Counted from the first letter of the stretch, positions 2,641 to 58,027 are shown. The stretch is DNA of 64,000 nucleotides from Nitrososphaerota archaeon (GCA_011605725.1 JAAOZP010000017.1:352001-416000); one strand, 5' to 3'. Notes: generated by a model not told the origin, from the letters alone. Program-made: numbers and translations.

Positions 2641-3052
2641 TCATTTCAACCCGCTTTCCAGAGCATTCAGACGATGAAGAGAAGGAATATAAGCATTAAT
2701 TTCCGGTAAACCGGTATGCTTAAAACATGGTGTTGAAGCTCTTGCCGAGACCATTTAAAACTATTCTGAATTAGGAGGTAAGCTAACCCCATTTATATGC
2801 AAACCTTAAGCGATAGAAACACGGTTTCACGCAGAAGTACGTATGCAATTCTTTCATGGCAAATCAGCATCACAGCGGCTCCAGACTCAAAAAGGAGAAT
2901 GCTTCCTAATGCGGTGGAAAAATAGCATGCAGCATGTCGGCTTACACCCTGTCTTGAGGAGAGAAGCATCAGGGATGCTTCAGAGAAACACACATGGTAA
3001 CGCGGCCAAAGTATAAAAAGGGCGTGCACTATAAAGGGTTTTTGAGCCGGAG

Positions 3053-3832
3053 TTGAACGATGCTTTTAAAGAAGGCGGGGACGTTCTCCTAGTCTCAGCC
3101 AAAGGTAAGAAAAGAGTTGTTAAGATTCAGGGAGACCGAATTCATACTCATAGAGGATATATTCAGACCGGTAGCATTATCGGTAGCAAGCCTGGGATAA
3201 TGGTTAAAACCCACACTGGAGACGAGATGCTTGCCGTTAAGCCCCTTGTTGCCGACTATATTCCTAAACTCTCCAGGAGGACGCAGATAATGTATCCTAA
3301 GGATCTCGGATACATGGTTCTAAGCCTCGGAATATCACCCGGTTTCAAGGTTTTGGACGCTGGTACTGGCAGCGGGGCTGCCGCCATGGTTATGGCAAGC
3401 CTCGTAAGGCCGACTGGAAGAGTATTCTCATACGATGTTGATGAGGAATCACTGGCGATCGCCAGGAGGAACCTTGAAAGAGTAGGCCTCCTCGAATACG
3501 TTGAGCTTGTGCACGAGGATGTTAAAACAGCCGTTTTCAAAGAGCTCTTCGACGCTGCATTAATGGATCTTCCAGACCCTTGGGAAGCCTTGCTGAACGT
3601 TTCCAGGTTTCTTAAGCCGTCGGCCAGAATATGCCTTGTACTGCCTACTATGAACCAGCTGGAGAAGGCTTACTCCGCGCTGGTAGACTCTGGAATAGCG
3701 CATCTCGAAACCGTAGAAATACTTCTGAGAAGAATAAGGCCTTTCCAGGGAAAGGTTCGGCCCGAGTCTCTGATGACTGGGCACACTGCTTACCTTATGC
3801 TTGGCGTAAAAGTTTCCAGAGAAAACGTTTAA
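3053..3832 (+). CDS. trmI: tRNA (adenine-N1)-methyltransferase
   Basis: RRTQIMYPKD, DAGTGSG SAM-binding motif, DLPDPWE, GHTAYL. Confidence 0.93.
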   Translation: MNDAFKEGGDVLLVSAKGKKRVVKIQGDRIHTHRGYIQTGSIIGSKPGIMVKTHTGDEMLAVKPLVADYIPKLSRRTQIMYPKDLGYMVLSLGISPGFKVLDAGTGSGAAAMVMASLVRPTGRVFSYDVDEESLAIARRNLERVGLLEYVELVHEDVKTAVFKELFDAALMDLPDPWEALLNVSRFLKPSARICLVLPTMNQLEKAYSALVDSGIAHLETVEILLRRIRPFQGKVRPESLMTGHTAYLMLGVKVSRENV

Positions 3833-3859
3833 AAAGAGCGTGAAGAGGGAAGCGTCGGG

Positions 3860-4441
3860 TTGGAGAAGAAGGAAGCGGTTTACTCAGCTGGAAACCTGCT
3901 TGTGCTGATAGGTTTAACTGTTCTTTCAGCCTTCATGTTCGTCACAAGCCTTCAGGTCACCGGCTTTCTAAGAACCAGTGTCAATCTTTTCAGCTCCGCC
4001 CTCATATTCATAGGGTCAGTACTCCCATTCCTGCTTAAAGAGATGGAAGCTGAACAGAGAATGAGAAGCATTGGGCTAAGATGCTTTACATCAAGCTTCA
4101 TAATGTCAATACTGCTTCTGGCTCAAACAGTGTTTCGAGGATTCGCCTCAACAGTGCCGATTTTAACGTCGCTAGCATTAGGATTATCAGGCATATCGGC
4201 ATACCTTCTCTCTAGAACTGGAAGAGTCGCGATGCCGTCAATCATGGAGATACTATTGTTTGTCTCAGTAATAATGGTGTTTTCAGCGCCAATGATCCAG
4301 TTGTTTCTAATAGACCTTGGAATGAGCATTAATACTGCTAGACTAGTGTCAATCAGCATACTAATCGTGTTCACAGGAGTGCTCTATGTTTCACTCAAGA
4401 AGGCCAGTAAATCCTCTGAAACCGGTTCAAGAGAAAAATAG
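3860..4441 (+). CDS. Hypothetical membrane protein (~6 TM)
   Basis: 193-aa ORF with alternating hydrophobic segments, co-oriented with trmI. Confidence 0.7.
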   Translation: MEKKEAVYSAGNLLVLIGLTVLSAFMFVTSLQVTGFLRTSVNLFSSALIFIGSVLPFLLKEMEAEQRMRSIGLRCFTSSFIMSILLLAQTVFRGFASTVPILTSLALGLSGISAYLLSRTGRVAMPSIMEILLFVSVIMVFSAPMIQLFLIDLGMSINTARLVSISILIVFTGVLYVSLKKASKSSETGSREK

Positions 4442-4478
4442 AGCTGTTTAGCGAATGCTAGCCGTCGGACACGTAATG

Positions 4479-4486
4479 CTTAAAAC
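4479..4486 (+). promoter_or_regulatory. Putative TATA box for the downstream structured RNA
   Basis: CTTAAAA starting ~25 nt upstream of the terminal helix that begins at ~4504. Confidence 0.45.
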
Positions 4487-4503
4487 TGTCTTGAAAAGTG
4501 TCT

Positions 4504-4755
4504 GAACAGGGTAGACCAGGCTCCTGCTCGGGGGAAACTCTGAAGCAGGCCTCAACCTCTTGAGGAGGGTACAAGCCGCCTTGACCATGGGGATTGGGCG
4601 TGAAACCCGTGGAGAGGTTGAAGCAGCCCTCCCAAGATGTTGCGGAGTAAAAGCATCCTCCTCAGGCTTGTTGAAAAGCGGATTGGGGAGGATGAGCCTA
4701 CTAGCCTGGGCCCAAATGCTTCCCGAGACTCGCGTACATGGTTGAGACCTTGTTT
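4504..4755 (+). ncRNA. Unassigned structured ncRNA (~250 nt)
   Basis: Helices 4504-12/4747-55, 4516-22/4703-09, 4523-49 (GAAA tetraloop), 4552-60/4613-21, 4585-91/4606-12 and 4654-64/4684-94. Non-WC pairs read as G-U on the + strand. Confidence 0.65.
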
Positions 4756-5011
4756 AAACCATCTGACGGTTAATGCAGTAGGTGTTGTCCTCTACACCAT
4801 CTTAATGCATAACAGGTTTTCAGCTGAAGCACTTGTTGAAGCTGCGCTAATAGGCGGCTTCCTTATCGGTTACGCGGAAAACCCGCTTACCTTGAAAAAC
4901 ATCTGACTTGTGAAAAGCCTGAGACGTTTGCCATAGTAATGATAGGAGTCGTGCCTCATCCCACCCCAGCAATCCTTATTAAACCTGAGTTGTTATGCCC
5001 GCATTGTAGAA

Positions 5012-7402
5012 ATGAGTAGTCTCTTTAAATCTTCAGAGCTCCTTTTAACCTCAACAAGGATTGAACAGCTTTTCAAAAACATTAAGGATGAGCCTCATTA
5101 CTATGTGGATATGCATATCCACTCTAAGTATAGCAGGGCCACTAGTGCCAATATGACTCTCGAAAACATTGCTTTCTCCGCCAGGCTGAAAGGTCTGAAC
5201 ATCGTGGGAACCGGAGACTGTACGCATACCAAATGGTTAAAGGAGCTTAAGAAGAAGCTTGTCGAATCTTACCCTGGTCTCTACAGGTTGAGAAGCGAGA
5301 GGAATCCGGAGCAAACCACGCTCTTCCTGATTCAAGGAGAAGTTAACACCGTCTACCGTGATGAGAATGCTGTTAAAAGGATACACCACGTAATACTTTT
5401 CCCAGACTTCGACACTGTTGAACAGGCCTATGACGCTTTAAAGCATACTGGTGACCTTAATGCTGACGGGAGGCCGTTGCTCGAATGCTCTTCCCCAGAG
5501 CTTGTCGAAACCTTGAAAAGCATTTCGAAAGACATCGAGGTCTTCCCGGCGCATGTTTGGACCCCGCACTTCAGCATTTTCGGCATTCACGGCTACACTA
5601 GTGTTAAGGAATGCTATAAGGATAAGCATAGCGAGATACATGCTCTCGAAACGGGATTATCTTGTTACGATGAAAAGACAGAAGTTTTAACGGAAGAAGG
5701 TTGGAAAAAATTCTCCGAAGTAAAACCAAGCGATAAAATATATACTTTAAACCCAAAAACAGGAGAAATCGAGCTTCAACATCCCAGAGGAATCTTCTCC
5801 TACTGGTATAAAGGCAGAATGTACAGGTTGAAAACTCGAAGTGTTGATTTACTTGTCACGCCGAATCACAATCTCTTCATTACCACGTGCGACTTTAGGA
5901 ATCCAAAAACATCTTTCTTAAAGCAGGCGAGAGAAGTATTTGGGAAATCCAAAAGTTTTAAGAAGGATGGGAAATGGAACGGTAACAACGAAGAATATTT
6001 TACCCTCCCCTCCCTAGAAATTAGGCATGGAAACCGGTATTATTCTGGTCTAAGAAGAATACCTGAGAAGAAAATACCAATGAAAGACTGGTTAAAATTC
6101 TTTGGATTTTGGTTGGCTGAAGGTTGGACAACGAGGGAGAAAAACGGAGATTATAATGTTTGCGTTTCTTGCAAAGATGGGAAGTTAATTTCTGAAATGA
6201 AAAAGCTGCTTCAAAGTTTTGGATACAGGGTTTTCCAGAACAAGAAACACCATATACTTAGAGTGAGAAACTATCAGTTGTTCGCTTATCTTGAGCAATT
6301 CGGTAAACGTCATGAGAAATTTATTCCAAAAGATGTGAAAATGCTTTCGAAAGACCTTCTCAAGATATTGCTTGACTACTACATTAAAGGCTGTGGCCAC
6401 ATTCACGGAAGGACTAACAAGGGGCTATCTGCAACTACAACCTCCACAAGACTCAGAGATGACCTGCAGGAAATAGCTTTAAAGATTGGAATATCCGCCT
6501 ATTTTAAGCTCGATAAGAAAAAGGGGAATCCTTTGAAAAGTCTTTCCTCAGGAAAGAAGACTTACAGGCAGAGCAATGATTCTTGGACGGTTTATTTCAT
6601 CAGAAAAAACACACATACTGTTATTCCCTCGACCATAAGGAAAAATAAGTATATAGAAAGATGGGTAGATTTTAAGGGAAGAGTATACTGTGTATCAGTT
6701 CCTAATAAAGTAATTTATGTAAGAAGAAACGGGATTCCTGTATGGTGTGGCAATTCAGATCCTCCAATGAACTGGAGGGTTTCAAGCAATGATCGCTACG
6801 TGTTGGTTTCTAACAGCGATTCTCACTCTTACTATCCTTGGAGGCTCGGCAGAGAGGCTAACCTTATGCTCTTGGAGGATTTGAGCTATAGGAGCATACT
6901 GGATGCGATCCGTAAACAGGGCAGGTCTAGAATAATCCTCACTATCGAAACCTATCCTGAACATGGGAAATATTATCTTCCAGGTCATCGAAAATGCAAG
7001 GTTTCAGTTGACCCCGAGAAGTATTTTAAGCTTAAAGGAGTCTGCCCGGTGTGCGGCAAAAAGCTCACGCCTGGAGTAGAGACGCATATAGAAGAACTCG
7101 CTGACCGTCCTAGGGGCATAAAGCCGAGGGATGCTCCAGACTATATTCATCTCATACCGCTTTCAGAGATAATAAGCTATGTTTACTCCACAAGTTTAGA
7201 TTCCAAGAAGGCTTGGAGCATTTACTACAGTCTGGTAAAGAAGCTTGGAAGCGAATATCGTCTGCTGGTTGAAACCCCTGTGGAGAAGCTGGCAAAACAC
7301 GATAAGAAGCTGGCCTACGTGGTGGAAAAAATTAGAAATGACAGGGTTAAAATAAGGCCCGGATATGATGGAGTATATGGAAAGATTGAGGTAGTCGAAT
7401 AG
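5012..7402 (+). CDS. Endonuclease Q family (PHP-domain) protein interrupted by an intein
   Basis: DMHIHSKYSRATS, GTGD, HHVI, PAHVWTP, ETGLS|SDPPMNW, NSDSHS, GKY..GHRKC, CPVCGK, PGYDGVYG. Confidence 0.9.
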   Translation: MSSLFKSSELLLTSTRIEQLFKNIKDEPHYYVDMHIHSKYSRATSANMTLENIAFSARLKGLNIVGTGDCTHTKWLKELKKKLVESYPGLYRLRSERNPEQTTLFLIQGEVNTVYRDENAVKRIHHVILFPDFDTVEQAYDALKHTGDLNADGRPLLECSSPELVETLKSISKDIEVFPAHVWTPHFSIFGIHGYTSVKECYKDKHSEIHALETGLSCYDEKTEVLTEEGWKKFSEVKPSDKIYTLNPKTGEIELQHPRGIFSYWYKGRMYRLKTRSVDLLVTPNHNLFITTCDFRNPKTSFLKQAREVFGKSKSFKKDGKWNGNNEEYFTLPSLEIRHGNRYYSGLRRIPEKKIPMKDWLKFFGFWLAEGWTTREKNGDYNVCVSCKDGKLISEMKKLLQSFGYRVFQNKKHHILRVRNYQLFAYLEQFGKRHEKFIPKDVKMLSKDLLKILLDYYIKGCGHIHGRTNKGLSATTTSTRLRDDLQEIALKIGISAYFKLDKKKGNPLKSLSSGKKTYRQSNDSWTVYFIRKNTHTVIPSTIRKNKYIERWVDFKGRVYCVSVPNKVIYVRRNGIPVWCGNSDPPMNWRVSSNDRYVLVSNSDSHSYYPWRLGREANLMLLEDLSYRSILDAIRKQGRSRIILTIETYPEHGKYYLPGHRKCKVSVDPEKYFKLKGVCPVCGKKLTPGVETHIEELADRPRGIKPRDAPDYIHLIPLSEIISYVYSTSLDSKKAWSIYYSLVKKLGSEYRLLVETPVEKLAKHDKKLAYVVEKIRNDRVKIRPGYDGVYGKIEVVE
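5663..6754 (+). mobile_element. Intein (364 aa) with LAGLIDADG homing endonuclease domain
   Basis: Starts CYDEKTEVLT, block B VTPNH, blocks FFGFWLAEG and LLDYYIKGCG, ends VWCGN followed by Ser(+1). Splits the GLS/SDPP motif; more AT-rich than its flanks. Confidence 0.92.
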
Positions 7403-7511
7403 GCACGTGCGCTAAATTTTTATCGCACGCGCTTCAGCAATTACTCTGTGGATAAAGATTTGCCGAAGTATAAAAAGTTTAAGAAAGAGCCGCTTGTACT
7501 ACCTAGGTTTA

Positions 7512-10505: not shown

Positions 10506-10704
10506 TTTCCTCCACACTCTAAAATCATGATGCGCTTAAGCTCCTTGCTCATGCGCCTGTTAAAAAATTAAAGCATTCATGAGGAATGGCGCCGCTACGA
10601 GCACTAGCTTTTAACCATGTTAGGTGGTAATCCAAGACACTCGCGGTCACGGGGCCGAGTAGATAAGCATCTTCTTCTCCGAAAACAACCGGCGCGCGTG
10701 ACTT

Positions 10705-10828
10705 TTGCTTGACTGCAGCTTTCCTGAGCTTGTCGAAATATTGAAAGAGCGTTGGGGAAACATCGGAGTCTCCCGGCGCATGTTTGAACCCCGCATTCCA
10801 GCATTTTCGGAGCCCACGGCTACACTAG
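10705..10828 (+). pseudogene. Degenerate fragment of an EndoQ homologue
   Basis: Aligns by eye to 5477-5601 (cttgtcgaaa..cccggcgcatgtttg.accccgca..cagcattttcgg..cacggctacactag), with an indel and a TGG>TGA change. Confidence 0.8.
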
Positions 10829-10930
10829 CACGTGAGAACTGCTGACTATAAAGCACCAAGGCCATACTTAACCTTGGAGAGACTTTATTTCTAGCTATGA
10901 TGAATTCATGAAGCAACTAAAGTTCATTTT

Positions 10931-10940
10931 AGCACGCGCT
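10931..10940. repeat. Dispersed palindromic motif copy AGCACGCGCT
   Basis: Member of the intergenic AGCGCGCGCT-like family. Confidence 0.6.
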
Positions 10941-10987
10941 TCCACCAAGATTCTGCGCTTCGCAGCATAGGAAGCAACGTGGAGGTC

Positions 10988-12316: not shown

Positions 12317-12370
12317 CCCTCACGATTCATAATGGCGCCGATGTTTAAACTTTGCTTATGAAGCCGGGAG

Positions 12371-12608
12371 TCAGCTCCGGTGGTATAACAATGTTGGCAG
12401 AAACCATGTAAGCATGTTGTGGAAACCAGCATGACTAAGGATGAGAAAATCATGGGAATATTGCGGTAAGCATATGGGAAGAGCAGGATCAGTGTTGAGA
12501 CGCCCTTCGGCAGAAGTAGTATCGCTAAAAATCTCCTGCCGTGTGAGGCAACAATGCCGGTTTTAGAGAAAGCCTCAGTCAGCAGGAAAACTGGAAAACA
12601 TAGATTAT
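12371..12608 (-). pseudogene. 3' remnant of a paralogue of the membrane gene at 15933-16565
   Basis: Shares tcagctc, gcatatg.gaagagcag.atcag and ccggttttagagaa with 15933-16170. Peptide EAFSKTGIVASH vs EAFSKTGLVAVH; frameshifted. Confidence 0.8.
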
Positions 12609-12618
12609 AGCGTGTGCT
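12609..12618. repeat. Dispersed palindromic motif copy AGCGTGTGCT
   Basis: Sits at the truncation point of the adjacent remnant. Confidence 0.6.
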
Positions 12619-12672
12619 GTAGTTGAAAAAACTTTTAAGCCGAGAGAACACTGGGTTTCTAAGGCTTCAGCG

Positions 12673-13152: not shown

Positions 13153-13249
13153 CATAATGCTCTAACAGTCATGATGGTCACGCTTGGAAAAGTATTTAAA
13201 CAGTTGAACTCGCAACCCTAGCGGCAGGTGAGAGTACACGTGGACGAGC

Positions 13250-28342: not shown

Positions 28343-28751
28343 GAACATCGCCTACGAGAAGGTTATGGAGTTTCTACGTCAAGTCGAAAAGCTTAAGCCG
28401 ATGCTCATCGTGCTTTTCGGCTCCTACGCTAGGGGGGACTTCACTGAGAAGAGCGACATAGATGTGTGCATAGTGGCTGAGAATCTTCCCGAGAACATTT
28501 TCGAGAGGAGGAGCCTATCCGGGCTTTACAGGGTAGACAATCTGAGGGCCGTCGGATATTTCCCGCAAGAGTTTCTAGAGGAATTAGAGAAGCCTAACTT
28601 CTTCCTGTACGATGTGCTTGAGGACGGCATAATTATTCACTACGACAAGTCTTTTCTGGAAAACGTAATGGAGAAAAGAAACACGGTTAAAAAGAAAATG
28701 GGTTTAGTAAGGGAAAGCGACGGCTGGAGGATAATGAGAAAAGAGAAATAA
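28320..28751 (+). CDS. Minimal nucleotidyltransferase (MNT)
   Basis: LFGSYARGDFTEKSDID; overlaps the HEPN gene. Confidence 0.9.
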   Translation: MLPKEKLKNIAYEKVMEFLRQVEKLKPMLIVLFGSYARGDFTEKSDIDVCIVAENLPENIFERRSLSGLYRVDNLRAVGYFPQEFLEELEKPNFFLYDVLEDGIIIHYDKSFLENVMEKRNTVKKKMGLVRESDGWRIMRKEK

Positions 28752-28795: not shown

Positions 28796-28805
28796 AGCGC
28801 GTGCT
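28796..28805. repeat. Dispersed palindromic motif copy AGCGCGTGCT
   Basis: Intergenic, downstream of HEPN-MNT. Confidence 0.6.
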
Positions 28806-29018
28806 GAATTTTAGCCCATCCCGACTTGGGCACGGGATGCTGATCTAATGTTTAGCAGTATATTCTCTTAAGGCTTAGCGCAACCCTACTCCTTTTTAAG
28901 TATTATACAGCGCATATTAGAGTTTCGAGGCCAGAATACTTACGATGGCGCATGCTCACAGATACGGGAGCCCCCAGCGCGCTAGCCTAGCTTTCAATAC
29001 TGGTTTCTAAAAACATTC

Positions 29019-29431
29019 TTATTTTTCAGCACTGGAGGTAATCCAGATTCTTTTAATCCCTCTAACCTTGTCGAACTCCCTGTCTTCGAAAACTATATTA
29101 CTTATCCCGGCTTTCTCCATCGTTGCCAAGTGTATAGCGTCAGAGGTTTCAAACCGTATTTCAACAAGTATTTTTCAGCGGGCTTTGAATCCTTCTCTTC
29201 AACAGGCAAGACTTCAGCGTAGGGCAGCACTATGTTTTTCAAGAAATCTAGAGTTGTTTCATACGACACTCCATACTTTCTCGATATGTAAAGCACCTTA
29301 TCTATCACAAGCATGCCCGTAAACAGCTGTTCTTCAAGAAGTCTTTTAAACAGCCCTTCTACCAGCCTTCTTTCATCATCCACCATAGCGTTCAAGTATA
29401 TGAAGAGGCAAGCATCTAGAAAGGCTTTCAA
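29019..29431 (-). pseudogene. PIN-domain (VapC) toxin, frameshifted
   Basis: FLDA start. After YGLKP (~29145) the PIN C-terminus SDAIHLATMEKAG...EDREFDKV continues in another frame to a TAA at 29019. Confidence 0.85.
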
Positions 29432-29709
29432 CCAGCGTTCTCCTCAAACTCCATTTCTAAATAGGCCTTACTCAGGCCCCCCAGTTTCAGACCAGAAACC
29501 CCTATCCTTCTAATCTTTTCAACATGCTCCTTAAGCCTTTTCATTATTTCCTCCTGAGAGGGTTTTCCCCTTATCAGGATTCCTTCAGAAGTGAGTTCGA
29601 TCGAAACCTTCTCTCCCTCCACTATTCCATACCTGTCTCTAAACACTTTAGGGATGAGTATTTGACCCTTTTCTCCAACTTTTACCTTGAGTTCAACCAT
29701 GGTTTCCAA
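29428..29709 (-). CDS. AbrB/MazE/SpoVT-family antitoxin
   Basis: KVGEKGQILIPKVFRDRYGI; overlaps the vapC start. Confidence 0.88.
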   Translation of the reverse strand: METMVELKVKVGEKGQILIPKVFRDRYGIVEGEKVSIELTSEGILIRGKPSQEEIMKRLKEHVEKIRRIGVSGLKLGGLSKAYLEMEFEENAG

Positions 29710-30130
29710 AAGTTATACCTTAGTTGAAATCTTAAGCCTTTCCAACTTGAGTAGCAGCCAATGGGCACCTCCTCCTTCCCAAAGAAAGAGGCGAAAACCC
29801 TTGCTTCATCTAACAGCTTTCTCCTCAGCCCCCGCTACCTAAACCGACTCGAGAAGTATACTCTTAGTCTGAAGTTGTTTGTTTAACTCTAATTTTTCAA
29901 GCACCATACGATACAGGGCGGAGTCTACTCTGAGCGCGCGCGGAAAAGCTTTGAGGAGTTGCTTGATGATGCAGTCGATGACCTTAGGAACCACCTTCAG
30001 TTCGATAAGTATAAGAACGTTAAATACGGTATAGCTATAGGATTCTCATATGATCCAGAGCAGGTGCTTGCGGAGGAGCCTGGCGTGCCCCCGCTCATAA
30101 GAGTGTATGGTAGGGGGGAGCCATAGGGAA

Positions 30131-39240: not shown

Positions 39241-40189
39241 TTATTCCGGCTGGCTTAAGTTTATCCTTCTGATCTCCGCCGGAGGAATCTTCCATTTTCT
39301 ATCGTAAGTCATGAAGCCATTAACCTCGCCTTCAACACCGTAAAGCTGAGTATGGCAGAACCGCAGACACGTGGTTCACGCATTATCGTCAGCGTCACGT
39401 CGCGGTACTTGCTGACAAACTCATACTCGTCCTCTAACGGCGGACCGTAAGCGTGAAACTCCCTGTCTATCAGCGGCGTGAAAACCTTAATGCCCCAGCC
39501 GCCGTACTCGCTCATGACCACTGGTTGGCCAGAGTATTTGAAACCCTTGAACATAAGCGGCCTGTGCGAAGAATATGGCTCAAGTTTCTTCGCTTTCCTC
39601 CAGCCCTCGGCGAACACGTAGCCTCCCTGCCACGCCATGTAATCATGAACATCTATAATGTCTGACTCAGTATGGTGGTAGCCACTGTTGTCTATTACAA
39701 GCCTCGTTGGGTCATGCTTCTTAGTCTCCCTGTAGACTGTCCTTATGAAGCCTAGGGCTTCAGGAGTTTCACCCGGATCCCTCTCGTTGAACGAAACTCA
39801 TACGGTTACGCATGGATGGTTAAAGTCCCTGTCTACGATTGTCCTCCACTCAGTTAAGAAGGGCTCAAGGTTTCGGCTTACAAGACTCACACCCCAGTCG
39901 CCCATTTCCTCCCAGACTAGAATCCTGATCTTGTCAGCCCAATACAAATATCTAGGATTCGGAGGCGCGCGTTATACCATACTACGTTGTGGAAACCCTC
40001 GTCATTTATTCTGCTCAGCCTACTCTGATACGGGAACGGAACCATAATGATTCTGTTAAAAACATCTTTAGACAAGCACCATTTTTCATCCTCCCCTGCA
40101 CTCTTATCGTCGAAAGCAAACCCCCATTCACCGTTCAGGTTGATCCATCTGCTTCTAACGAAATCCGGCCTCGGAATACCCTCCGACAT
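39241..40189 (-). pseudogene. GH2 beta-galactosidase/glucuronidase remnant with large internal deletion
   Basis: PRPDFVR..LNGEW..VPFP..VWY joined directly to PRYLYWADK..WEEM; then RDFNHP, DPTRLVIDNSG and SEYGG, with stops and frameshifts. Confidence 0.85.
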
Positions 40190-45332: not shown

Positions 45333-45338
45333 CCATGC

Positions 45339-47903: not shown

Positions 47904-47965
47904 TGGCTAGACGGCTGACTGAGAACCGGGTTTGAAGACTGGAAGCGGAAGACACGCTTTACTGC

Positions 47966-48550: not shown

Positions 48551-48708
48551 GGGAAAAGCATTTGACGTTTAAAAACTTTTCGAGCTTGAAGCGCGTGTCA
48601 ATATGCTTATCTTAATACATTTACTGATTTTAAACATGATAATGTTGCTATCGCCGTAAAAACCCGGTTGAACTCTTTAAGAGACAATGTGCCCACGCGG
48701 ATAAAAGG

Positions 48709-50618: not shown

Positions 50619-50645
50619 TATTAACTGGCTTAGTATAACCTGAAA

Positions 50646-52208
50646 CTATATAAGTTTTGTTTCAGTGTTTCTCAAACGTGCGCCAGCCTTTCTCCCAATG
50701 CTCCTAAACAGCTGAACTAGTTCAACGAAGACAGCGTAGTTCTCCTCGTAAACAGCCCTGTTCCTCTCAACTGGCACAACTCTCTCTTTAATACTTACCC
50801 ATTTACTTGAAAACTCTTCTATGCCGGCAAGGTTTAAAGCGTTGAAGGCTAGTGCTGCTGCACCGTAATTGGTAGCGTCCTCACCCCCAGCTACAACGTT
50901 AATCCTACAGCCGAGAATATCTGAAAGTATTTGCGCCCATATTCTGGATTTTGAACCTCCTCCTACAAAGTATACTTCGCCCAGGCCTATCGAGTTTTCC
51001 GAGAGCGCGTCGCTAATCGCCCTAATAACGTAGCCCACTCCCTCCATTATCGATCTTACGAAATGAGCTCTACTGCATCCTCTGGTGACGCCTATGAAAG
51101 CACCCGTTAAGTTTGGGTCTCTATAAGGAAACCTTTCACCCGTGAGAAAAGGCAGGAAGATAAGGCCTTCTGAACCCGGAGAAGCTTTTTCCGCCTCCAG
51201 GTCCAGAATACTGTAAGGATCTCTGCCGATCATGCTGCCGGCTAGAGTCTCTACCTGGCCGAAATTATCCCTGAACCATCTTAAACAGTCGCCACCGCTG
51301 TTCGAAGCACCTCCTAAAGCATAGAGACCGTTTGCCGCATAGTAGGTGAAGAACCGCATTTCAAGACTCTTGTCGAAAACAATTCTCCTTGAAAGCTTTC
51401 TAACAACCCCGGTGGTCCCGATGTTTAAAACAGTGCCTTTTTCAGTCAAGCCTAGGCCGAAGTTCTGCGCCGCACCGTCGAACGTCGCCAAAACGATCCT
51501 CGTGCCCGGTGCAAACCCGTATTCCCTGCTGACGCTAGACGGAACAGCGTCTAGACTTTTCCCACCCTCGCATAGCCTTGGAAACCTGTTCTCATCAACC
51601 CCAAGTAGGTTAAGTACTTTCTCACTATACTTGAGTCTTTTAAGATTAACAACCCCGCCTCCGCTGGCCGTGGCAAGATCTATATGCGGCTCCGTTGTCA
51701 AGCCGCTTTTCCACAGCAAGTAATCCTTACAGAATAAAAAATATCTTGCTTTTCTAAAGGTTTCAGGCTTCCTTTTCATAAACCAGTAAAGCTTATACGG
51801 CATGAATACGAATAGCGGCGGAGCCCCGGTTTCTCTGTAAAGCTCGTACGCGTCAGTTTTCTCCAGCAGCTCTTTTTCAACCTCCGCCGCCCTAGTATCA
51901 TGATGCGTCAACACCCTTGTTAAAGGAACCCCATCTTTGTCTACGAGGAGCACGCTATGGTTGTAAGCCGTCACGGAGATTGCTCCAATGCTCTCCCCGT
52001 ATTTTTTACCGAAATAACCCAGCATGAGGGTGAAAGACTCTAAGAGCTCTTTCGGCTCGTGTCCAGCAAACCTGCTTTCCAGGTGAAGCGTTATCTCGCG
52101 AGTCTGCCTGTCAACAACCTTTCCTTCACTACTTATGACGAGACCCTTCATATTGGTACTGCCGACGTCAATCGTAAGAACAAGGCTCATTTCCACGCCT
52201 ACTTTCAT
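50646..52208 (-). CDS. FGGY-family sugar kinase, gluconokinase-like
   Basis: IDVGSTNMK, DTRA, PFLTGER, EGV, GGGSKS. Confidence 0.85.
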   Translation of the reverse strand: MKVGVEMSLVLTIDVGSTNMKGLVISSEGKVVDRQTREITLHLESRFAGHEPKELLESFTLMLGYFGKKYGESIGAISVTAYNHSVLLVDKDGVPLTRVLTHHDTRAAEVEKELLEKTDAYELYRETGAPPLFVFMPYKLYWFMKRKPETFRKARYFLFCKDYLLWKSGLTTEPHIDLATASGGGVVNLKRLKYSEKVLNLLGVDENRFPRLCEGGKSLDAVPSSVSREYGFAPGTRIVLATFDGAAQNFGLGLTEKGTVLNIGTTGVVRKLSRRIVFDKSLEMRFFTYYAANGLYALGGASNSGGDCLRWFRDNFGQVETLAGSMIGRDPYSILDLEAEKASPGSEGLIFLPFLTGERFPYRDPNLTGAFIGVTRGCSRAHFVRSIMEGVGYVIRAISDALSENSIGLGEVYFVGGGSKSRIWAQILSDILGCRINVVAGGEDATNYGAAALAFNALNLAGIEEFSSKWVSIKERVVPVERNRAVYEENYAVFVELVQLFRSIGRKAGARLRNTETKLI

Positions 52209-52668
52209 TTTTCCAAGGCTCTTCTTAATAACCTCTTCGCCCTCCGAAGTGTTTCTCCAACCTTTTCATTAATGATTCTCACGTCTGAAAACCAGGGTAA
52301 CTCGTAGACGAAACGGGGAAATGTTGAACGTGTGGAACGATGGTTTTCAAGGTTGAGCAAGCAGGGCTTAAAGATTTTTATACGTTTCAAGCATTTCAAC
52401 TTCAGGTTGCCGCGTAAGGAGCCCCGAATACTTCTCGACGCCGAGGTCCTTGTGAGGCTCGCATACCTCACCATCACGGGTGAAACAGAGTTTAAAAACC
52501 TGGAGACGCTTAGGCTGGCCTACGAGCAGGGCGGAGGCCAAACCGTTGCTAGCGAGGCCACTCTAGAGGGCTCGCTGGAGCTGACGCCGATTGAAGACCT
52601 CCGAAGATTCTTTGAGGAAACACTGGGTTCTTCAAACAGTTTGAAGAAAGAGTAGAATGGATGTGACG

Positions 52669-54489
52669 CTATAGTTCTTCAAACTCGTATTCCTCAGTTT
52701 TCCTGGGCGCCGGCCTCCCTTTCAAACGAAGTATTTTAAACACTACTACTGCTAAAACTATTGAAAAAACACCGATTATTATGAGAACCACGTTCATCGA
52801 CATAGGTATTTTTATAGTCACCTCCCTCTCCGTCAGGAAGCTTACTCTAACAGTCGCCGAGTACCCTAGGTTGATTACTGTAACCGTCAGCTCTCCGCCG
52901 GCAACCCTGCTAATGTTGACAGTGCCGCTTGGCCCAGTGACGTATTTAGCCTGAGTATTGTTCGCGAATATTATTTTCAACTCAGCACCCTCTATGGGCA
53001 TTGAAAAAGGATCCACGATCCTGATGAACCCGTTTACAATGCTGCATGAAACCCTTATCTCCCTAGGGGCGTCGACATGCTCTATTCTAGCCTCGTCGAG
53101 AACATTCAGCCCCGCGTACTTAACCATCGTCAACCTGAAGCTTCCCCCAGTCATCCAGATGCTTCTTAAAGTCCCGTTGTAAACAGTGTTGTTTGAAAAC
53201 ATGCAAATATAGAAGGTGGGGTTGAACGGAGCATTATCCTTGTCGACGAAGCTCAAGTTAACCAGGTACTCCTTCCGGTACTCCGCCGTCAGCTCAAGGT
53301 CTCCCTCAACATTCAACACTATTTCTGGAGAAAGAGTCGTCAAGCCTTTCTGTTTCCATCCGGTGAAAACGTACCTCACCCCTTCAGTAGGACTATACGT
53401 CTCCTGTGCCCTGAGGGTCTTGGTTCCGTACGTAGTGTAGAAGACAATCCCGGTTTCATCCATTATTTCCTGGCGTTTGCCATCAAGCTCTACAGCCACA
53501 CCCGGTATGCTAAACACGCTTATCTTTGCAAGCCTAGCCGTGAAACTAGCCTGGCCGAAATTATTATCCTCATTCGAATCGTAAAACACGTTCAGCGCTT
53601 TAACCCATATTTTTACAACGTGAATACCCGCAGTAACATTAGTGATAGTCTTTTCGAAGCGTACTCGCTCCGACTCCAGCATAGGGGTTTTGAGCCTAAG
53701 CTGGCTGCCGGTAGTGTTCGTAAGCAGAGCATCGTCAAGCATGATGGTTATCAAGTAGTCCGGAATAGCAGCATCCCCCTTGTTTCTTAAAACCAAGACA
53801 AGAGTCAAGTTGGAGCCTGCGATAAGACTCTCCTTATCCAAGTATACTCCTTCAAGCATGATGTCGCATCTTGTCGCCCAGTTGTCAGGAGAAGAGACAA
53901 CTCCCCAGCTAGACGGGTTGCTTAGAAGAGCGTCAGCAGGCCAAGAATAATTAACCCCTACTCCGGAAGCGATTAGGGCGAACCCTAGTGTCCTAGGCGT
54001 ATTAGGATGAACATCCAGCTTCCATAAAGGTATGGATAGTTCAATAGTCCAAGAAACAGTTCCATTGACAATCCTGAAGATAATGTCGCCTGCAGACTCC
54101 TCAAGCCATTCATCCCCATGCCCGTAGAAATATTTTAACACGCCCGACCTGTTTACAGCAAGCCTCGTAGTTCCAACTGTGAGAACAGTACTGTTTAAAA
54201 CACCGGTGTTAAAAAGAAGGTTGACTGTCCTGCAAGCATTGTTCAAAACCATTGCGAAAAACAGGTGGCTGCCATTATGGACAGCATAGGTTTTCACCCA
54301 TGGTAGGCTGAGCTGTTCAACAGGATACTCTCCTGATGAAACAGCCCCGTCTACCCTAGGGCTTTTGTAAATCGGGATACTTAGCTCCGGCTCGGCTGAA
54401 GCATGAAGCAGCAAGCATCCGGCCGCGAGAAGCATGATTATAAGCAGTATTATCATACTGTTTGCAAACGGCTTCCTAAGCCTCCTCAT
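52669..54489 (-). CDS. Secreted, C-terminally anchored surface protein (DOMON/CBM9-like + CARDB + Ig-like)
   Basis: Signal peptide, PRVDGAVSSGEY, NKG..DSNEDNN, C-terminal TM helix with basic tail. Start re-set to ATG 54489. Confidence 0.7.
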   Translation of the reverse strand: MRRLRKPFANSMIILLIIMLLAAGCLLLHASAEPELSIPIYKSPRVDGAVSSGEYPVEQLSLPWVKTYAVHNGSHLFFAMVLNNACRTVNLLFNTGVLNSTVLTVGTTRLAVNRSGVLKYFYGHGDEWLEESAGDIIFRIVNGTVSWTIELSIPLWKLDVHPNTPRTLGFALIASGVGVNYSWPADALLSNPSSWGVVSSPDNWATRCDIMLEGVYLDKESLIAGSNLTLVLVLRNKGDAAIPDYLITIMLDDALLTNTTGSQLRLKTPMLESERVRFEKTITNVTAGIHVVKIWVKALNVFYDSNEDNNFGQASFTARLAKISVFSIPGVAVELDGKRQEIMDETGIVFYTTYGTKTLRAQETYSPTEGVRYVFTGWKQKGLTTLSPEIVLNVEGDLELTAEYRKEYLVNLSFVDKDNAPFNPTFYICMFSNNTVYNGTLRSIWMTGGSFRLTMVKYAGLNVLDEARIEHVDAPREIRVSCSIVNGFIRIVDPFSMPIEGAELKIIFANNTQAKYVTGPSGTVNISRVAGGELTVTVINLGYSATVRVSFLTEREVTIKIPMSMNVVLIIIGVFSIVLAVVVFKILRLKGRPAPRKTEEYEFEEL

Positions 54490-54542
54490 AGCTCCTATGC
54501 GTAGGGAAACTCTTAAAAAGATTTTTTTGCGGATGAAAAACA

Positions 54543-55748
54543 GTGATCGTGTTGAAAGAAGCATGCGTGTTAGCGTATTCAGGCGGGCTTGATACTTCAA
54601 CCATGATACCGTGGATAATGGAGAAATACGGCATGGATGTTATCGCCGTCATCGTCGACGTCGGCCAGAAAGAAGACTTTGAGGCTGCTGTCGAGAGAGC
54701 TGAGAAGCTTGGTGCATCAGAAGTTGTTAAAATAGATGCTAGAAGAGAGTTTGTTGAAAAATATGTTTTCAAAGCCATAAAGGCTAACGGCCTGTATGAA
54801 GGCGTTTACCCAATGGGCACTTCTCTCTCAAGGCCGCTGATAGCTTCAAAGATCGTTAAGGTGGCTGAGGAGAAGGGTGCTTCAACAGTTGCCCACGGCT
54901 GCACAGGGAAGGGTAACGACCAGGTTAGGTTTGAAGTATCAATAAGGTCGCTGAACCCTAGGCTTAGAATACTTGCGCCAGTCAGAGAATGGGGATTAAG
55001 CAGGGATGACGAGGTTGAATACTTGGGTAAGAAGGGTGTTAAAATGGATCCTGGGAAAAGCAGGTTCAGCATAGACGACAACCTGTGGAGCAGGTCTATT
55101 GAGGGCGGTGAGCTTGAAGACCCTTGGGTGGAGCCTCCTGAGGAAGCGTTCGTCTGGAGCAGACCAGTGTCCGAGGCGCCGGATAAGCCTGAGTACATGA
55201 CGATAGAGTTCGAAAAGGGTGTTCCCATAAGTCTGAACGGGGAGAGGCTTGATCCAGTTGAATTAATACTCCAGGTTAACAGAACAGCTGGGTCACATGG
55301 CTTCGGCAGAATAGACCACATGGAGGACCGTGTTGTCGGAATAAAGTCCAGGGAAGTCTACGAGGCTCCTGCAGCCTTAACACTGATAAGAGCACACCAG
55401 GATCTTGAGAAACTCGTTTTAACAAGGCTTGAGCTGGAGGAGAAGAGGAGGCTTGAAGCAACATGGGCCTGGCTCGTATACTCCGGACTATGGTTTGAAC
55501 CTTTAAGAATGGCTATTGAAGCATTCATAGACTTCACGCAGGAGAATGTTGACGGGGAGGTTAGAGTTAAACTGTTTAAGGGAGAGGCAGTAATCGTTGG
55601 AAGACGCTCAGCGAAATCGCTCTACGACGAGAAGAGAGCAACCTACTCGTCTCTTTCAAGGTTCGACCAGGCCTTGGCGAACGGTTTCATACAGCTTTGG
55701 GGACTCTCAACAGTGAGGGCGAACGAGGTGCGCCAGCGTAAAAGCTAA
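54543..55748 (+). CDS. argG: Argininosuccinate synthase
   Basis: AYSGGLDTS, HGCTGKGNDQVRF, GIKSREVYE. Confidence 0.97.
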   Translation: MIVLKEACVLAYSGGLDTSTMIPWIMEKYGMDVIAVIVDVGQKEDFEAAVERAEKLGASEVVKIDARREFVEKYVFKAIKANGLYEGVYPMGTSLSRPLIASKIVKVAEEKGASTVAHGCTGKGNDQVRFEVSIRSLNPRLRILAPVREWGLSRDDEVEYLGKKGVKMDPGKSRFSIDDNLWSRSIEGGELEDPWVEPPEEAFVWSRPVSEAPDKPEYMTIEFEKGVPISLNGERLDPVELILQVNRTAGSHGFGRIDHMEDRVVGIKSREVYEAPAALTLIRAHQDLEKLVLTRLELEEKRRLEATWAWLVYSGLWFEPLRMAIEAFIDFTQENVDGEVRVKLFKGEAVIVGRRSAKSLYDEKRATYSSLSRFDQALANGFIQLWGLSTVRANEVRQRKS

Positions 55749-55785
55749 ATTTATAAGCAAGAACATGAAGAATCTTCAACACTCC

Positions 55786-55959
55786 ATGAAGACGGAATGC
55801 GAGGAATGCCTAGCTGTGTTCGAGGTCTCGGAAGACGCGATAGTGGGTGAAGTAGTGACATGCCCCGAATGCGGCTCAGACCTTGAGATAATAGAGATAA
55901 GCGGCGACACCGTTAAGACGAGGAAGATTCAGCTCTCAGGCGAGGACTGGGGCGAGTAG
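55786..55959 (+). CDS. lysW: Amino-group carrier protein LysW
   Basis: CxxC..CPECG and C-terminal EDWGE. Confidence 0.95.
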   Translation: MKTECEECLAVFEVSEDAIVGEVVTCPECGSDLEIIEISGDTVKTRKIQLSGEDWGE

Positions 55960-55968
55960 GCGTAGGAA

Positions 55969-56823
55969 TTGCCTTTAAGCATTTTTTATGACCAGATAAG
56001 GTTTGAGGAGAAAGAGCTTTTCAAAGCAGCTGAAAACCTTTCAATACCCTTTAAAAGACTGAACGCGGACGATTTTTCATTCACACTCGGCAGGAGGACG
56101 CCTGAGATCCAGGATGTTGACACAGCCCTCTTAAGATGCGTATCATACTTCAAGTCGCTCCACCTTTCAAGCTACCTGGAGGGGGTTGGAATACGAACAG
56201 TAAGCTCCTTCAAAACACTGCAGATAGCTGGAAACAAGCTCTTCACGACAGTCGAGCTCGTGAAAAACAACGTGAAAACCCCGTTCACAGTGGTCTCCTT
56301 CTCCTACCAGTCTGCCCTAGACTCTTTCAACAAGACAGGATACCCAGCGGTTTTAAAACCCGTCATAGGAAGCTGGGGAAGACTAATCTCCCTTATAAAG
56401 GACAGGTATACTGCTGAAGCAGTGCTTGAAGACCGTTTATACATGTTCCCGCTTTACCAGGTTTTCTATGTTCAAGAGTATGTTGAGAAACCCGGTAGAG
56501 ATATTAGGGCAACAGTAATCGGGGATGAAGTTGTCTCCGCAATATACAGGGTCTCCCCGCCAGACCAGTGGAAGACAAACCTAGCTATAGGTGGAAAAAG
56601 CGAGAAGGCGGAGATAACCAGCGAGCTGGCTGAAATAGTTCTCAAAGCAGCCGAAGCAGTAGGCGGAGAAATAGTGGGGATAGACGTGATGGAGAGCCCT
56701 AGGGAGGGTTATGTTGTTAACGAGGTTAATCCTACGCCTGAGTTCAGGGGAAGCATGGAGGCCACTGGAATCAACATTCCCGAGAAGATTCTCAAGTACC
56801 TCGCGTCTAAAGCGAGAAGGTAA
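55969..56823 (+). CDS. lysX: LysW--glutamate/aminoadipate ligase (LysX/ArgX)
   Basis: RFEEK, KPVIGSWGR, QEYVEKPGRDIR, NEVN. Confidence 0.92.
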   Translation: MPLSIFYDQIRFEEKELFKAAENLSIPFKRLNADDFSFTLGRRTPEIQDVDTALLRCVSYFKSLHLSSYLEGVGIRTVSSFKTLQIAGNKLFTTVELVKNNVKTPFTVVSFSYQSALDSFNKTGYPAVLKPVIGSWGRLISLIKDRYTAEAVLEDRLYMFPLYQVFYVQEYVEKPGRDIRATVIGDEVVSAIYRVSPPDQWKTNLAIGGKSEKAEITSELAEIVLKAAEAVGGEIVGIDVMESPREGYVVNEVNPTPEFRGSMEATGINIPEKILKYLASKARR

Positions 56824-57195
56824 GAGTGTAGCGTGCACTATCAGCATTAGAATCATTTTTACGCTGCCCAGCTTATGTTAGCGTGCGGGCTACTCAGAAT
56901 AGGGTACGTTTTCACATACGCTTTGACTCCAAGTATAAGGAGGGATTAGAGGAGATAAGGAACCTTTTAAAAGATCTAGGCTTCCGTCCCCCTGAAATCC
57001 ATGAGTATTATAGGGAGGATAGAACCTATTACTATTTTATGAATCCCTGAGGAGGAACACTTAAAATTCATAGAGGAGATAGGATCTGAGAAGCCGGACC
57101 ATCGTGAGAAGTTCGAGGGTCTTGAAACAAATTTATGAAGAGAAAAGAAGAAAAAGGGGAGAGGGAAGATTAAAAGAGAAGCAGGGAGTAAAGAT

Positions 57196-57885
57196 ATGGA
57201 AACGAGGAAATCGGCGAAGGTATGGGGATGGGGCGACAAATTTGAGGACGTAAAGATTAATTGTGAAAGATACGTGGACAGAAGGTGGACGGAGACTACG
57301 AAGGAATGCTGCATCGGCATCATGGCAAGAGAGAGAAATAAGACGATATTTTACTTCATCGATGCATATACGAGTGACCCCAAAAGCGTTGGAAACCTGG
57401 CTGAAGGTCTATTCCAGGCAGCGCTTAGCCAAGGGGAAACTAAAGTCGACTTCGTCACAATAAGGTTCTATGATAATGTCGTATCTCGCGATATGCAGCA
57501 CCGCAAGTCTATTGAGGAAATTGAGGAAGAACTCAAGAAACGCGAGAAAGTCATTGCCAGCAGATTCATTAACGATCCGAAGGTGAGTGACGCAGCTAAG
57601 GGGAAAGAAGTTATATTTATTCCAGAGACCCGTTTGCTATGTGAGCTCAGATCTAAAGTGGCGAACAAGGTGATTATAGAGGCGGTTTATGGCTTTGGCT
57701 TTGAGGCCTTAAAGGATTTCATCAACTCTTTAGGCAATGAACTTATCAAGAGGCGTATTGCTGAAGGAGTTGCTGGTTACGAGTTGCGGGGAAGCGCTGA
57801 GGAACTCAAAATCAATGATGTTGATGATGGGTATGATGAGGTTTACGTGTACTTAGGTTTGAATCAAGCTAGCATTTTATTCTGA
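57196..57885 (+). CDS. Hypothetical protein inserted in the lys/arg operon
   Basis: 229-aa ORF with GGGAG upstream; no motif recognised. Confidence 0.7.
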   Translation: METRKSAKVWGWGDKFEDVKINCERYVDRRWTETTKECCIGIMARERNKTIFYFIDAYTSDPKSVGNLAEGLFQAALSQGETKVDFVTIRFYDNVVSRDMQHRKSIEEIEEELKKREKVIASRFINDPKVSDAAKGKEVIFIPETRLLCELRSKVANKVIIEAVYGFGFEALKDFINSLGNELIKRRIAEGVAGYELRGSAEELKINDVDDGYDEVYVYLGLNQASILF

Positions 57886-58017
57886 ATGTTTTAGCGTGCA
57901 TCGACTAGGGATGAATGGGCTTAGGTTACTTAGGGAGGCGTGAAGCATCTAGAAACTGTTCCGCTTTAAACTGATTTAATATTCTACTAGTTCTTTATTC
58001 CGCTAAAGCACCATTCT

Positions 58018-58027
58018 AGCGCGCGCT
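58018..58027. repeat. Perfect palindromic motif AGCGCGCGCT
   Basis: Intergenic, right flank of the insertion in the lys operon. Confidence 0.6.

Follow-up and report, generated by a model that had tools for sequence, protein, structure and literature searches.

Palindromic filler at DNA joints of a hot-spring archaeon and a primase-like polymerase with a proposed RNA template as their candidate writer

The DNA presented here (the window) is a 64,000-nucleotide (64-kb) stretch from a Nitrososphaerota archaeon (GCA_011605725.1, JAAOZP010000017.1:352001-416000; G000:C7:352001-416000 in the genome and contig numbering used here). The source organism is a hot-spring archaeon whose genome (G000) comprises 2.23 Mb in 20 contigs and is 93% complete. 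Copies of a palindrome, AGCRYRYGCT, are dispersed through the window among genes that include those for EndoQ, phosphoglycerate mutase, the Y-family polymerase DinB, a paralog of RadA (RadA2), a primase-like polymerase of the archaeo-eukaryotic primase (AEP) superfamily, a HEPN-MNT pair, a GH2 glycosidase, and LysX and LysY (Table 1). An earlier note on this DNA had proposed the palindrome as a candidate recombination or end-joining scar; its copies are examined here together with the AEP gene and an RNA linked to that gene. Gene calls were crude and based on open reading frames (ORFs; 86% of the genome coding), and all genomes compared are metagenome bins.

Five full copies of AGCRYRYGCT were present in the window (10931, 12609, 24626, 28796, and 58018), all at the positions given in the earlier note, whereas shuffling predicted 0.81 copies and in 100 rounds never produced five. 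The copy at 12609 lies within a gene remnant, and none lies within an intact gene. Genome-wide, the exact 10-mer AGCGCGCGCT occurred 88 times, compared with approximately one copy expected under Markov models of order 1 to 3, and 75 of the 88 copies (85%) were intergenic, while the intergenic share of the genome is only 14%; the enrichment over a Markov background on which the earlier proposal depended was thus found. The 10-mer is one member of a family of different lengths, A(GC)nT, with 59 copies for n = 3, 88 for n = 4, and 20 for n = 5 in the genome, accompanied by 38 odd, one-sided forms (24 copies of A-GCGCGCG-A and 14 of its reverse complement, T-CGCGCGC-T). Single-mismatch variants of the core comprised 68 transitions and 23 transversions genome-wide, an excess that explains the RYRY pattern in which the motif was first described. 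The flanks of the 88 exact copies had nothing in common, and no larger repeat or miniature inverted-repeat transposable element (MITE) was found around the motif. The base at position -1 outside the palindrome was T in 51% of copies (background, 28%), with no signal further out, which fits a written unit (T)AGCGC. Spacers of all orientations contained the motif (-+, 37; --, 33; ++, 32; +-, 28) in proportion to their length, so a promoter element is ruled out and the transcription-factor site named earlier as an alternative falls away. Near copies with ≤2 mismatches were not above chance in number in the window (23 versus 25.5 expected), and 11 of these 23 were intergenic where 12.5% of the window is intergenic (P = 4e-5). 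The exact copies were strongly clustered in the genome, in mosaic islands at C4:27-68 kb and 170-206 kb, C9:60-71 kb, and C1:24-31 kb; the 250-kb contig C4 holds 25 of the 88, and the 438-kb contig C7, to which the window belongs, holds only 6.

Synteny across the window was compared with five genomes of the same genus, of which G002 was the closest (approximately 88 to 91% DNA identity). Synteny breaks or indels of >50 bp relative to G002 were scored for a scar-like 8-mer ≤3 bases from the end of the alignment. Seven of the 12 breaks abutted such an 8-mer (chance per break, 4.3%; P = 2e-7), a coincidence of the kind for which the earlier note had proposed a check. Three deletions specific to G000 carry filler at the joint (12608 to 12615, 39967 to 39973, and 56883 to 56891), where the G002 alleles are longer by 3.8 kb, 789 bp, and 1.8 kb, respectively. 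Base-by-base reading placed the motif at neither end of the long G002 allele for any of the three. Because the unbroken alleles lack the motif at both ends, the motif is filler added at the joint and not a preexisting recombination site; the earlier suggestion of a joining process that leaves an added GC core holds for these joints. The block lost at 12608 is kept in G002, G016, and G008 between the equivalents of 12607 and 12616, and the 1.8 kb of G002 lies between the equivalents of 56882 and 56892. The GH2 ORF is intact in G002 across the 39964 site (582 amino acids [aa], the lost 789 bp being its middle), and this fixes the direction of the event as a deletion in G000.

Not all copies mark rearrangements. 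At 28796 and 56830, 8 or 9 bases are replaced relative to a collinear relative with no rearrangement; at 56830, G008 has 9 other bases where the window has 13. These in-situ scars look like local breaks mended without rearrangement. G002 carries canonical scars of its own at spots homologous to 7393, 25980, and 29908 (AGCGCGCGCTA at the last), and these independent scars indicate that both lineages went on making scars after their split. At 10931, AGCACGCGCT in G000 and AGCGTGCGCT in G002 point to a perfect ancestral AGCGCGCGCT that has undergone a different transition in each lineage.

The junctions with which the motif had earlier been said to coincide, namely, both ends of an EndoQ fragment, the truncated membrane-gene remnant, the GH2 joint, and both flanks of the lysX-lysY insertion, were recovered by comparison with relatives. 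The source gene of the captured fragment is EndoQ by PDB sequence match (5zb8, 1.8e-55), and the homology of G013 and G008 to this source gene stops at the 10827 scar. The 12609 scar coincides with a truncated paralog remnant, the membrane-gene remnant of the earlier description. For the lysX-lysY insertion (56830 and 58018), the G008 copy of the left flank ends at the scar, and lysX directly adjoins lysY in G003, which is free of the motif. At the leftmost joint, G002 homology stops at 7393 and resumes at 7431, and G002 carries 1.5 kb there that opens with its own canonical TAGCGCGCGCTA. Among the 15 near copies listed earlier, eight had comparative support as decayed scars or joints (7404, 7424, 10691, 10827, 28947, 29933, 39964, and 56830); 57893 was conserved in G002 with no tie to a joint, and 21477 is plausible as a scar. 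Comparison with relatives gave no support to the other five (3021, 17053, 17085, 25829, and 48590), which are probably chance matches; 48590 is conserved in noncanonical form in three genomes.

Table 1. Scars, joints, and genes of the AEP locus in the window
Feature	Position	Strand	Remarks
Two decayed scars, GCACGTGCGCT and CGCACGCGCT	7403..7433	.	Nearly fill the 37-bp gap between two synteny blocks
Scar GGCGCGCGT, left end of captured EndoQ fragment	10692..10700	.	G013 homology (91%) ends at 10692; scar common to G002
Captured 125-bp EndoQ fragment between two scars	10704..10829	+	79% identical to window 5477-5599
Decayed scar AGCACGTGAG, right end of EndoQ fragment	10827..10836	.	Orthologous G002 position reads AGCGCGCGAG
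Scar AGCACGCGCT beside 3' end of phosphoglycerate mutase gene	10931..10940	.	G002 at same place: AGCGTGCGCT
Filler TAGCGTGT (12608-12615) plus GCT common to right flank	12608..12618	.	Seals G000-specific loss of a 3.3- to 5-kb block
Scar AGCGCACGCT linking TFB-side block to DinB gene	24626..24635	.	G002 and G016 homology both stop exactly at 24625
RadA paralog RadA2	25873..27021	+	Pfam Rad51, 3.9e-92; directly upstream of AEP gene
AEP primase-like polymerase, candidate scar writer	26987..27796	+	PF01896; alternative starts 26918, 26954
Remnant of AEP-linked RNA, 5' half	27763..27815	+	Stops right after GCTAAAAACA (GCUAAAAACA); 3' pseudoknot half missing relative to intact copies
HEPN-MNT gene pair	27845..28751	+	Pfam HEPN, 7.7e-28; NTP_transf_2, 6e-12; occupies place of RNA 3' half
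In-situ scar AGCGCGTGCT	28796..28805	.	Metagenome relative L138 collinear on both sides, with 8 unrelated bases instead
Decayed scar GGCGCATGCT at joint; AGCGCGCT 19 bp onward	28947..28983	.	G002 homology stops at 28946
Scar AGCGCGCGC joined to 5'-truncated gene fragment	29933..29941	.	G002 homology begins at 29942, inside coding region, on another contig
Filler GCGCGTT (39967-39973)	39964..39973	.	Seals 789-bp internal deletion of GH2 glycosidase gene
In-situ scar AGCGTGCACT right after lysX	56830..56839	.	Common to G002; G008 collinear on both sides
Filler GTGCGGGCT	56883..56891	.	Seals G000-specific 1.8-kb deletion; joint overlooked in the earlier note
Perfect scar AGCGCGCGCT, right flank of lysX-lysY insertion	58018..58027	.	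Homology resumes at 58027 in G016 and at 58025 in G008

The statement that no enzyme suited to such joining is encoded in the window proved wrong, as an intact extra AEP gene lies there beside a dedicated RadA paralog. A profile search of the genome for the AEP family found the canonical replicative primase PriS (C11:22886-23338) and one extra match (window 27314-27484), in the ORF that ends at 27796, which is the only intact extra AEP gene of the genome. PF01896 (31.5 bits versus a cutoff of 26.8) was the sole Pfam family found in the protein. The protein keeps every residue that does not vary among 22 homologues (DxD, CxxC, SGxxGFHIHVLDF, and, further on, a D) and with them AEP motifs I (DxD), II (SGxxGxH), and III (acidic), represented by D112, D114, S162, G166, H168, H170, and D220. 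An AlphaFold (AF2) model (pLDDT, 79.6; pTM, 0.80) had archaeal PriS structures as its best Foldseek matches (5of3_A and 1g71_A; E of approximately 2e-8, probability 1.00), with LigD PolDom and the Methanocella end-joining polymerase also matched. The protein thus has both the catalytic fold and the catalytic motifs of the AEP superfamily. It is not the replicative PriS, since a separate canonical PriS is present and searches for the AEP gene came up empty in 10 of the 16 other genus members.

RadA2 is approximately 50% identical to the housekeeping RadA, which every genome of the genus has, and was found only in the genomes with a full-length AEP gene (G000, G002, G006, G007, G012, and G016), where it lies directly upstream of that gene. 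These six genomes contained 118 (G016), 88 (G000), 70 (G002), 32 (G007), 18 (G006), and 6 (G012) copies of the 10-mer; the full-length AEP copies of G007 and G012 contain stop codons. G008, with an AEP remnant only, had 33 copies, and no AEP gene was detected in nine genomes of the genus with 0 to 3 copies. The module therefore co-occurs with scars. Homologues of the AEP protein at 40 to 50% identity were found in Bathyarchaeia; carriers outside the genus came from a search for related loci, and a sample of 401 genomes at the phylum level contained no further carriers. Across approximately 95 AEP loci, no conserved protein partner was found beyond the RadA paralog of the genus, and the genome (93% complete) had no match to Ku (PF02735) or the PrimPol family (PF09250). 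DinB, RadA2, and the AEP gene stand in a row in G000 (window 24638-27796). The adjacency of DinB to RadA2 was itself created by the joint at 24626: in G002, DinB is found on a different contig, and a separate scar precedes RadA2. Among genomes of the genus at least 89% complete, those with at least 16 copies of the 10-mer measure 2.0 to 2.3 Mb and those with 0 to 3 copies measure 1.3 to 1.8 Mb, except G010 (2.0 Mb); scar making may go with genome growth by capture of fragments, or the size link may simply follow phylogeny.

An element of approximately 90 to 125 nucleotides is conserved at the 3' end of several AEP gene copies (70 nhmmer matches in the fetched loci). Its layout, from 5' to 3', comprises a GUUACCC strand, CUGA, a hairpin, GAUGAAA, an unpaired stretch such as AUCAUGCGCUAAGAAC, the 5' strand of helix P2, a small hairpin, GAUGAC, and the 3' strand of P2; the loop of the small hairpin (GGGUAAC) pairs with the 5' GUUACCC strand to form a pseudoknot. 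Pairing was counted in an alignment of 35 distinct sequences from Bathyarchaeia only (A3), a joint MAFFT alignment of two clades (A2) having misaligned the 3' halves. Pairs were formed in 90.2% of cells, compared with 41 to 50% when partners were slid, and 104 cells were compensatory, with both sides changed, compared with 5 to 34 in the slid controls. The pseudoknot helix was 99.2% paired, with compensatory changes at four of its seven pairs. Covariation of this kind identifies the element as a genuine structured RNA linked to the AEP gene.

In the window, only the 5' half of this RNA remains at the end of the AEP gene; RNA model R1 had no match in the window, and an Rfam scan of the window found one tRNA only. 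That the template might lie at 28796, close to the AEP gene, was considered and rejected, this in-situ scar being missing from the collinear relative. The intact RNA of the genome lies on another contig (G000:C12:18828-18963), behind fragments of RadA2 and AEP genes. G002 shows the same split, with HEPN-MNT at the position of the missing 3' half, so that both species have kept an enzyme gene that lacks its RNA and an RNA that lacks its enzyme gene; in G016, G008, and G013 the HEPN-MNT pair is located elsewhere. The intact copy is preceded (G000:C12:18200-18965; locus L042:1160-1930) by the 3' end of a tRNA (…CCA), a perfect scar AGCGCGCGCT, a 48-aa piece of RadA2, and a frameshifted AEP fragment (aa 133-287), and it may be transcribed from the tRNA side. 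A scan for bacterial-type promoters and terminators around this copy gave nothing useful. The CUGA box and the two GAUGA(A/C) boxes (A3 columns 8-11, 62-68, and 121-126) occupy positions resembling those of D'/C' boxes in archaeal C/D RNAs, which suggests putative kink-turns that might bind L7Ae. One metagenome copy of the RNA (L196:1893-1964), with template GUGCAUAAA, has a (TGCA)4 run inserted in a loop, so that the RNA gene itself contains a scar of the matching type.

The unpaired stretch occurs in several classes (GCGCUAA; (A/G)CGCAUAAA or GUGCAUAAA; AUAGCUAGCUAAAA; GUGCAUGCAAA; GAGCGCGUAAA; and GUGCGAUCAG), every one of which has a 4-base palindrome before a run of A. Palindromes beside RNA loci were counted blind and de novo with the RNA masked, in a census whose related loci are not independent. 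The ends of GC runs (AGC:TGC) were 83:29 beside GCGCUAA templates and 4:21 beside GCAUAAA templates (Fisher test, p = 1e-7), and (TGCA)n numbered 0 in 140 kb versus 6 in 99 kb. Five (AGCT)n repeats were found in 13.8 kb beside AGCUAGCU (AGCUAGCUAAAA) templates and one in 298 kb elsewhere, and ACG:AGC ends were 15:6 beside the GCGCGUA template versus 20:110 elsewhere (p = 4e-7). Counts over whole genomes (Table 2) gave repeats specific to single genomes: A(CG)nT in G401 only, T(GC)nA in G402 only, and (GATC)n in G403 (151 copies versus 0 to 4 elsewhere). The second RNA copy of G401 (CGCGCUAAG) was found only after the 106 A(GC)4T copies of that genome had predicted one. The type of scar tracks the unpaired stretch of the RNA.

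Table 2. Template stretches and whole-genome counts of scar types; the ATCGATCGAT column covers G401 to G405
Genome	Template	A(GC)4T	A(CG)4T	T(GC)4A	ATCGATCGAT
G000	GCGCUA	88	2	1	
G002	GCGCUA	70	2	0	
G016	GCGCUA or CACGCUA	118	2	2	
G404	GCGCUAAG	45	2	5	4
G405	GCGCUAAG	108	5	3	0
G401	GCGCGUAAA and CGCGCUAAG	106	30	1	2
G402	ACGCAUAAA	5	3	21	0
G403	GUGCGAUCAG (both RNA copies)	40	5	7	151

We consider it probable (approximately 0.6) that the palindrome is a repair scar, written by the AEP polymerase from a template in its own pseudoknotted RNA, with the written tails joining DNA ends. After a DNA break, the polymerase would copy 4 to 6 template bases of the RNA (GCGCUA plus the run of A), placing a (T)AGCGC tail on 3' DNA ends. 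Because the 4-base template core is palindromic, the product could re-pair with the template and be extended again, giving variable n, and the tails on two ends could pair with each other. Tails of two different ends would then anneal, and after fill-in and ligation A(GC)nT would stand between whichever two DNA pieces had been joined; the scar would afterward decay, mostly through transitions. RadA2 would, in this genus, probably help tails or ends to pair, and the intact enzyme gene in the window would use the intact RNA of contig C12. We infer copying of the RNA by the AEP protein, the tailing of both ends and their annealing, and the part taken by RadA2; the one-sided odd forms suggest that only one end is sometimes tailed. 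Rated a little better than even is a wider proposal that Brockarchaeota-like and Bathyarchaeia archaea carry an AEP-RNA ribonucleoprotein that writes short, programmable, self-complementary tails gluing any two broken ends. This would be a telomerase-like, Ku-independent route of end joining and DNA capture that leaves hundreds of scars per 2 Mb and takes its specificity from 4 to 6 RNA bases.

Several results weigh against the AEP-RNA as the writer of the scars. The AEP gene in the window has lost the 3' half of its RNA, so the RNA would need to act in trans from another contig. No ligase, nuclease, or Ku partner was found linked to the module. The n = 2 form TAGCGCTA, the simplest product of annealing, had 12 copies in the genome and was not enriched. 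Three of four young scars are already imperfect, above the prediction of neutral decay. G009 (89% complete) has 16 scars, and neither AEP nor RadA2 was found in it, so that a loss must be assumed. The scar-bearing genomes of the genus probably form one clade, and since the genomes are related, the correlation between AEP and scars amounts to one or few events, not seventeen. The 40 A(GC)4T copies of G403 are unexplained by its two detected RNA copies. Finally, part of the match between template and scar is post hoc: the first guess at scar length for G402 (ATGCGCGCAT) had 0 copies and thus no enrichment, that for G401 (ACGCGCGT) was weakly enriched (25 versus 11), the n = 4 forms then proved to fit, and T(GC)4A was read from a control column.

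The alternative that survives best, unlikely in our judgment, keeps the AEP-RNA module and gives it another job, such as virus defense in the manner of defense-associated reverse transcriptases (DRT): the module would make templated repeat DNA, and the scars would be by-products caught by unrelated end joining. The match of template to scar is equally good under this explanation. Bacterial defense systems that pair a reverse transcriptase with a noncoding RNA are reported to produce tandem-repeat DNA, the HEPN-MNT pair adjoins the AEP gene in the window, and outside this genus no repair partner is conserved. The scars themselves, however, are short (n = 3 to 5) and two-sided, with the same half-site outward at both ends, and do not resemble random pieces of long repeats. 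The AEP gene is always coupled to the RadA paralog in this genus, HEPN-MNT lies elsewhere in other genomes and here replaces the 3' half of the RNA, and no Ku was found for a separate end-joining route.

More doubtful still is the production of tails without an RNA template, with the AEP or some other polymerase working through terminal transferase activity, slippage, or a protein template, and the likeness to the RNA arising from scars that landed in the RNA gene. Untemplated reiterative synthesis classically yields self-complementary repeats. Protein-templated synthesis of dinucleotide repeats by a defense reverse transcriptase-primase has been reported, and the L196 copy of the RNA does carry a (TGCA)n insertion in its loop. 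Against this origin, the RNA has half-sites and not whole palindromes, each followed by a run of A and always at the same unpaired position of a conserved pseudoknot, and in five independent contrasts between genomes a difference at that position goes with a difference in scar type.

Three further explanations, each very improbable, take the palindrome as something other than added tails. Were it a preexisting site for site-specific recombination or cassette shuffling (of the integron attC, cyanobacterial HIP1, or Xer type), as with the relaxed recombinase suggested earlier, its presence at module borders, its palindromic form (shared with many recombinase core sites), and its clustering in mosaic regions would be expected; such sites would also have to be there before breakage, and the unbroken alleles carry none at either end of the lost segments. 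At in-situ scars a few bases are substituted and no DNA has been exchanged, deletion ends fall within genes, the length varies (n = 3 to 5, with odd one-sided forms), and no recombinase is linked to the motif, so that it does not group with attC, HIP1, or dif-like sites.

Palindromic additions at joints are known from excision of hAT-type elements and from V(D)J joining, which would speak for a footprint of transposon or MITE excision or for hairpin opening with P-nucleotides, along the lines suggested earlier. P-nucleotides would be palindromic to the flank, whereas an identical core recurs here at 88 sites whose flanks bear no relation to it, with only position -1 biased. The lost DNA consists of ordinary unique genes, such as the middle of the GH2 gene, with no element in it, and neither target-site duplications nor element ends were found; this origin has little to recommend it. 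A selected DNA signal, such as a transcription-factor site, Z-DNA or a cruciform, or an uptake sequence, could account for the strong excess of the motif, its mostly intergenic position, and its alternating purines and pyrimidines, and it is hardly compatible with the lack of preference for promoter-bearing spacers, the absence of the motif from sister species with the same genes, its position exactly at breakpoints, and its free decay by transitions. An assembly or library artifact joining unrelated fragments, for which the use of metagenome-assembled genomes throughout and the position of the motif at joints might speak, is the least credible explanation, given orthologous scars common to G000 and G002 that have since diverged by point changes, an independent 537-kb JGI contig with the same locus (AEP protein 100%, DinB 99.7%, HEPN 99.4%, and MNT 100% identical) whose DNA reads as the window does across the 28796 and 28947 scars, and the restriction of the motif to lineages with the module, where its sequence follows their RNA.

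The closest known counterpart of the proposed AEP-RNA writer is telomerase (TERT plus telomerase RNA), which can add repeats de novo at internal breaks and leaves interstitial telomeric repeats at repaired breaks. As in telomerase, a polymerase comes with a structured RNA of its own, which contains a pseudoknot and, as putative template, a short unpaired stretch; covariation supports the pseudoknot, the template role is deduced from the match between this stretch and the scars in one genome after another, and the AEP protein would bind the RNA. The short unit likewise occurs in variable copy number, which suggests repeated copying, and the product stands at former DNA ends. Unlike telomerase, the enzyme has a primase (AEP) fold and not the reverse-transcriptase fold of TERT, the enzyme's own gene carries the RNA in its 3' end, and the template core is self-complementary, so that the product can glue two ends and does not cap one; the scars are internal, with no sign of linear ends in this 20-contig genome. 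The AEP polymerases of nonhomologous end joining (LigD PolDom, 2irx and 4mky; Methanocella paludicola, 5dmu) belong to the same fold superfamily, are among the Foldseek matches, and share the proposed role at double-strand breaks, namely, extension of 3' ends before joining. In contrast to those systems, no Ku was found in the genome and the gene has no linked ligase or phosphoesterase, which sets it apart from Ku-dependent end joining; the added bases are fixed and follow the RNA instead of being copied from the partner end, and the closest folds are PriS and not PolDom. Archaeal PriS has been reported to carry out microhomology end joining by synthesis across discontinuous templates. The replicative PriS is the best structural match and has the same DxD and SGxxGxH motifs, while the AEP protein is shorter (approximately 270 aa), patchy within one genus, and tied to an RNA.

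DRT2 and DRT10, bacterial defense reverse transcriptases with a noncoding RNA, have products that act in virus defense (bioRxiv 10.64898/2026.06.29.735271; PMC12039810). They have the same order of an enzyme gene followed by a pseudoknotted template RNA and the same repeated copying into tandem-repeat DNA; they differ in being bacterial reverse transcriptases and not an archaeal AEP, and the visible product here is hundreds of short chromosomal scars. No reverse-transcriptase family was among the Pfam matches of the AEP protein, which places it outside the DRT type. A literature search turned up neither an AEP that uses a templating RNA nor scars of this kind. New in the present analysis are the intact enzyme gene and RadA paralog in the window, with the RNA cut here and intact in trans on C12, as well as the in-situ scars, the independent decay of scars in sister lineages, and the flank census and whole-genome matrix that link template and scar.

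The finding in the window thereby moves from an orphan motif to a motif with likely machinery. If the AEP-RNA reading is true, it would represent a second independent invention of RNA-templated synthesis at DNA ends, with a primase fold and joining ends rather than capping them, and a route by which Ku-less archaea could join unrelated DNA. It would explain the mosaics of gene fragments and the uptake of foreign DNA in these lineages, with genomes reshaped on a large scale, and would provide a readable record of every repaired break, from which rates of breakage, deletion, and capture could be measured from genomes alone. As the template is a few bases long and varies between lineages, the idea is directly testable via template swaps, and the enzyme could serve as a tool that writes defined sticky tails on DNA ends.

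Two further features of the window were observed. The EndoQ gene (window 5012-7402) contains a 1.1-kb in-frame insert (approximately 5662-6754) with a LAGLIDADG domain; because the insert is missing from all five relatives compared, it is most likely an intein. On the minus strand at 29102-29709, an ORF with a PIN domain (weak match) and an ORF of the MazE/AbrB antitoxin type form a likely toxin-antitoxin pair, located in the part of the window where scars are densest (28796-29942).

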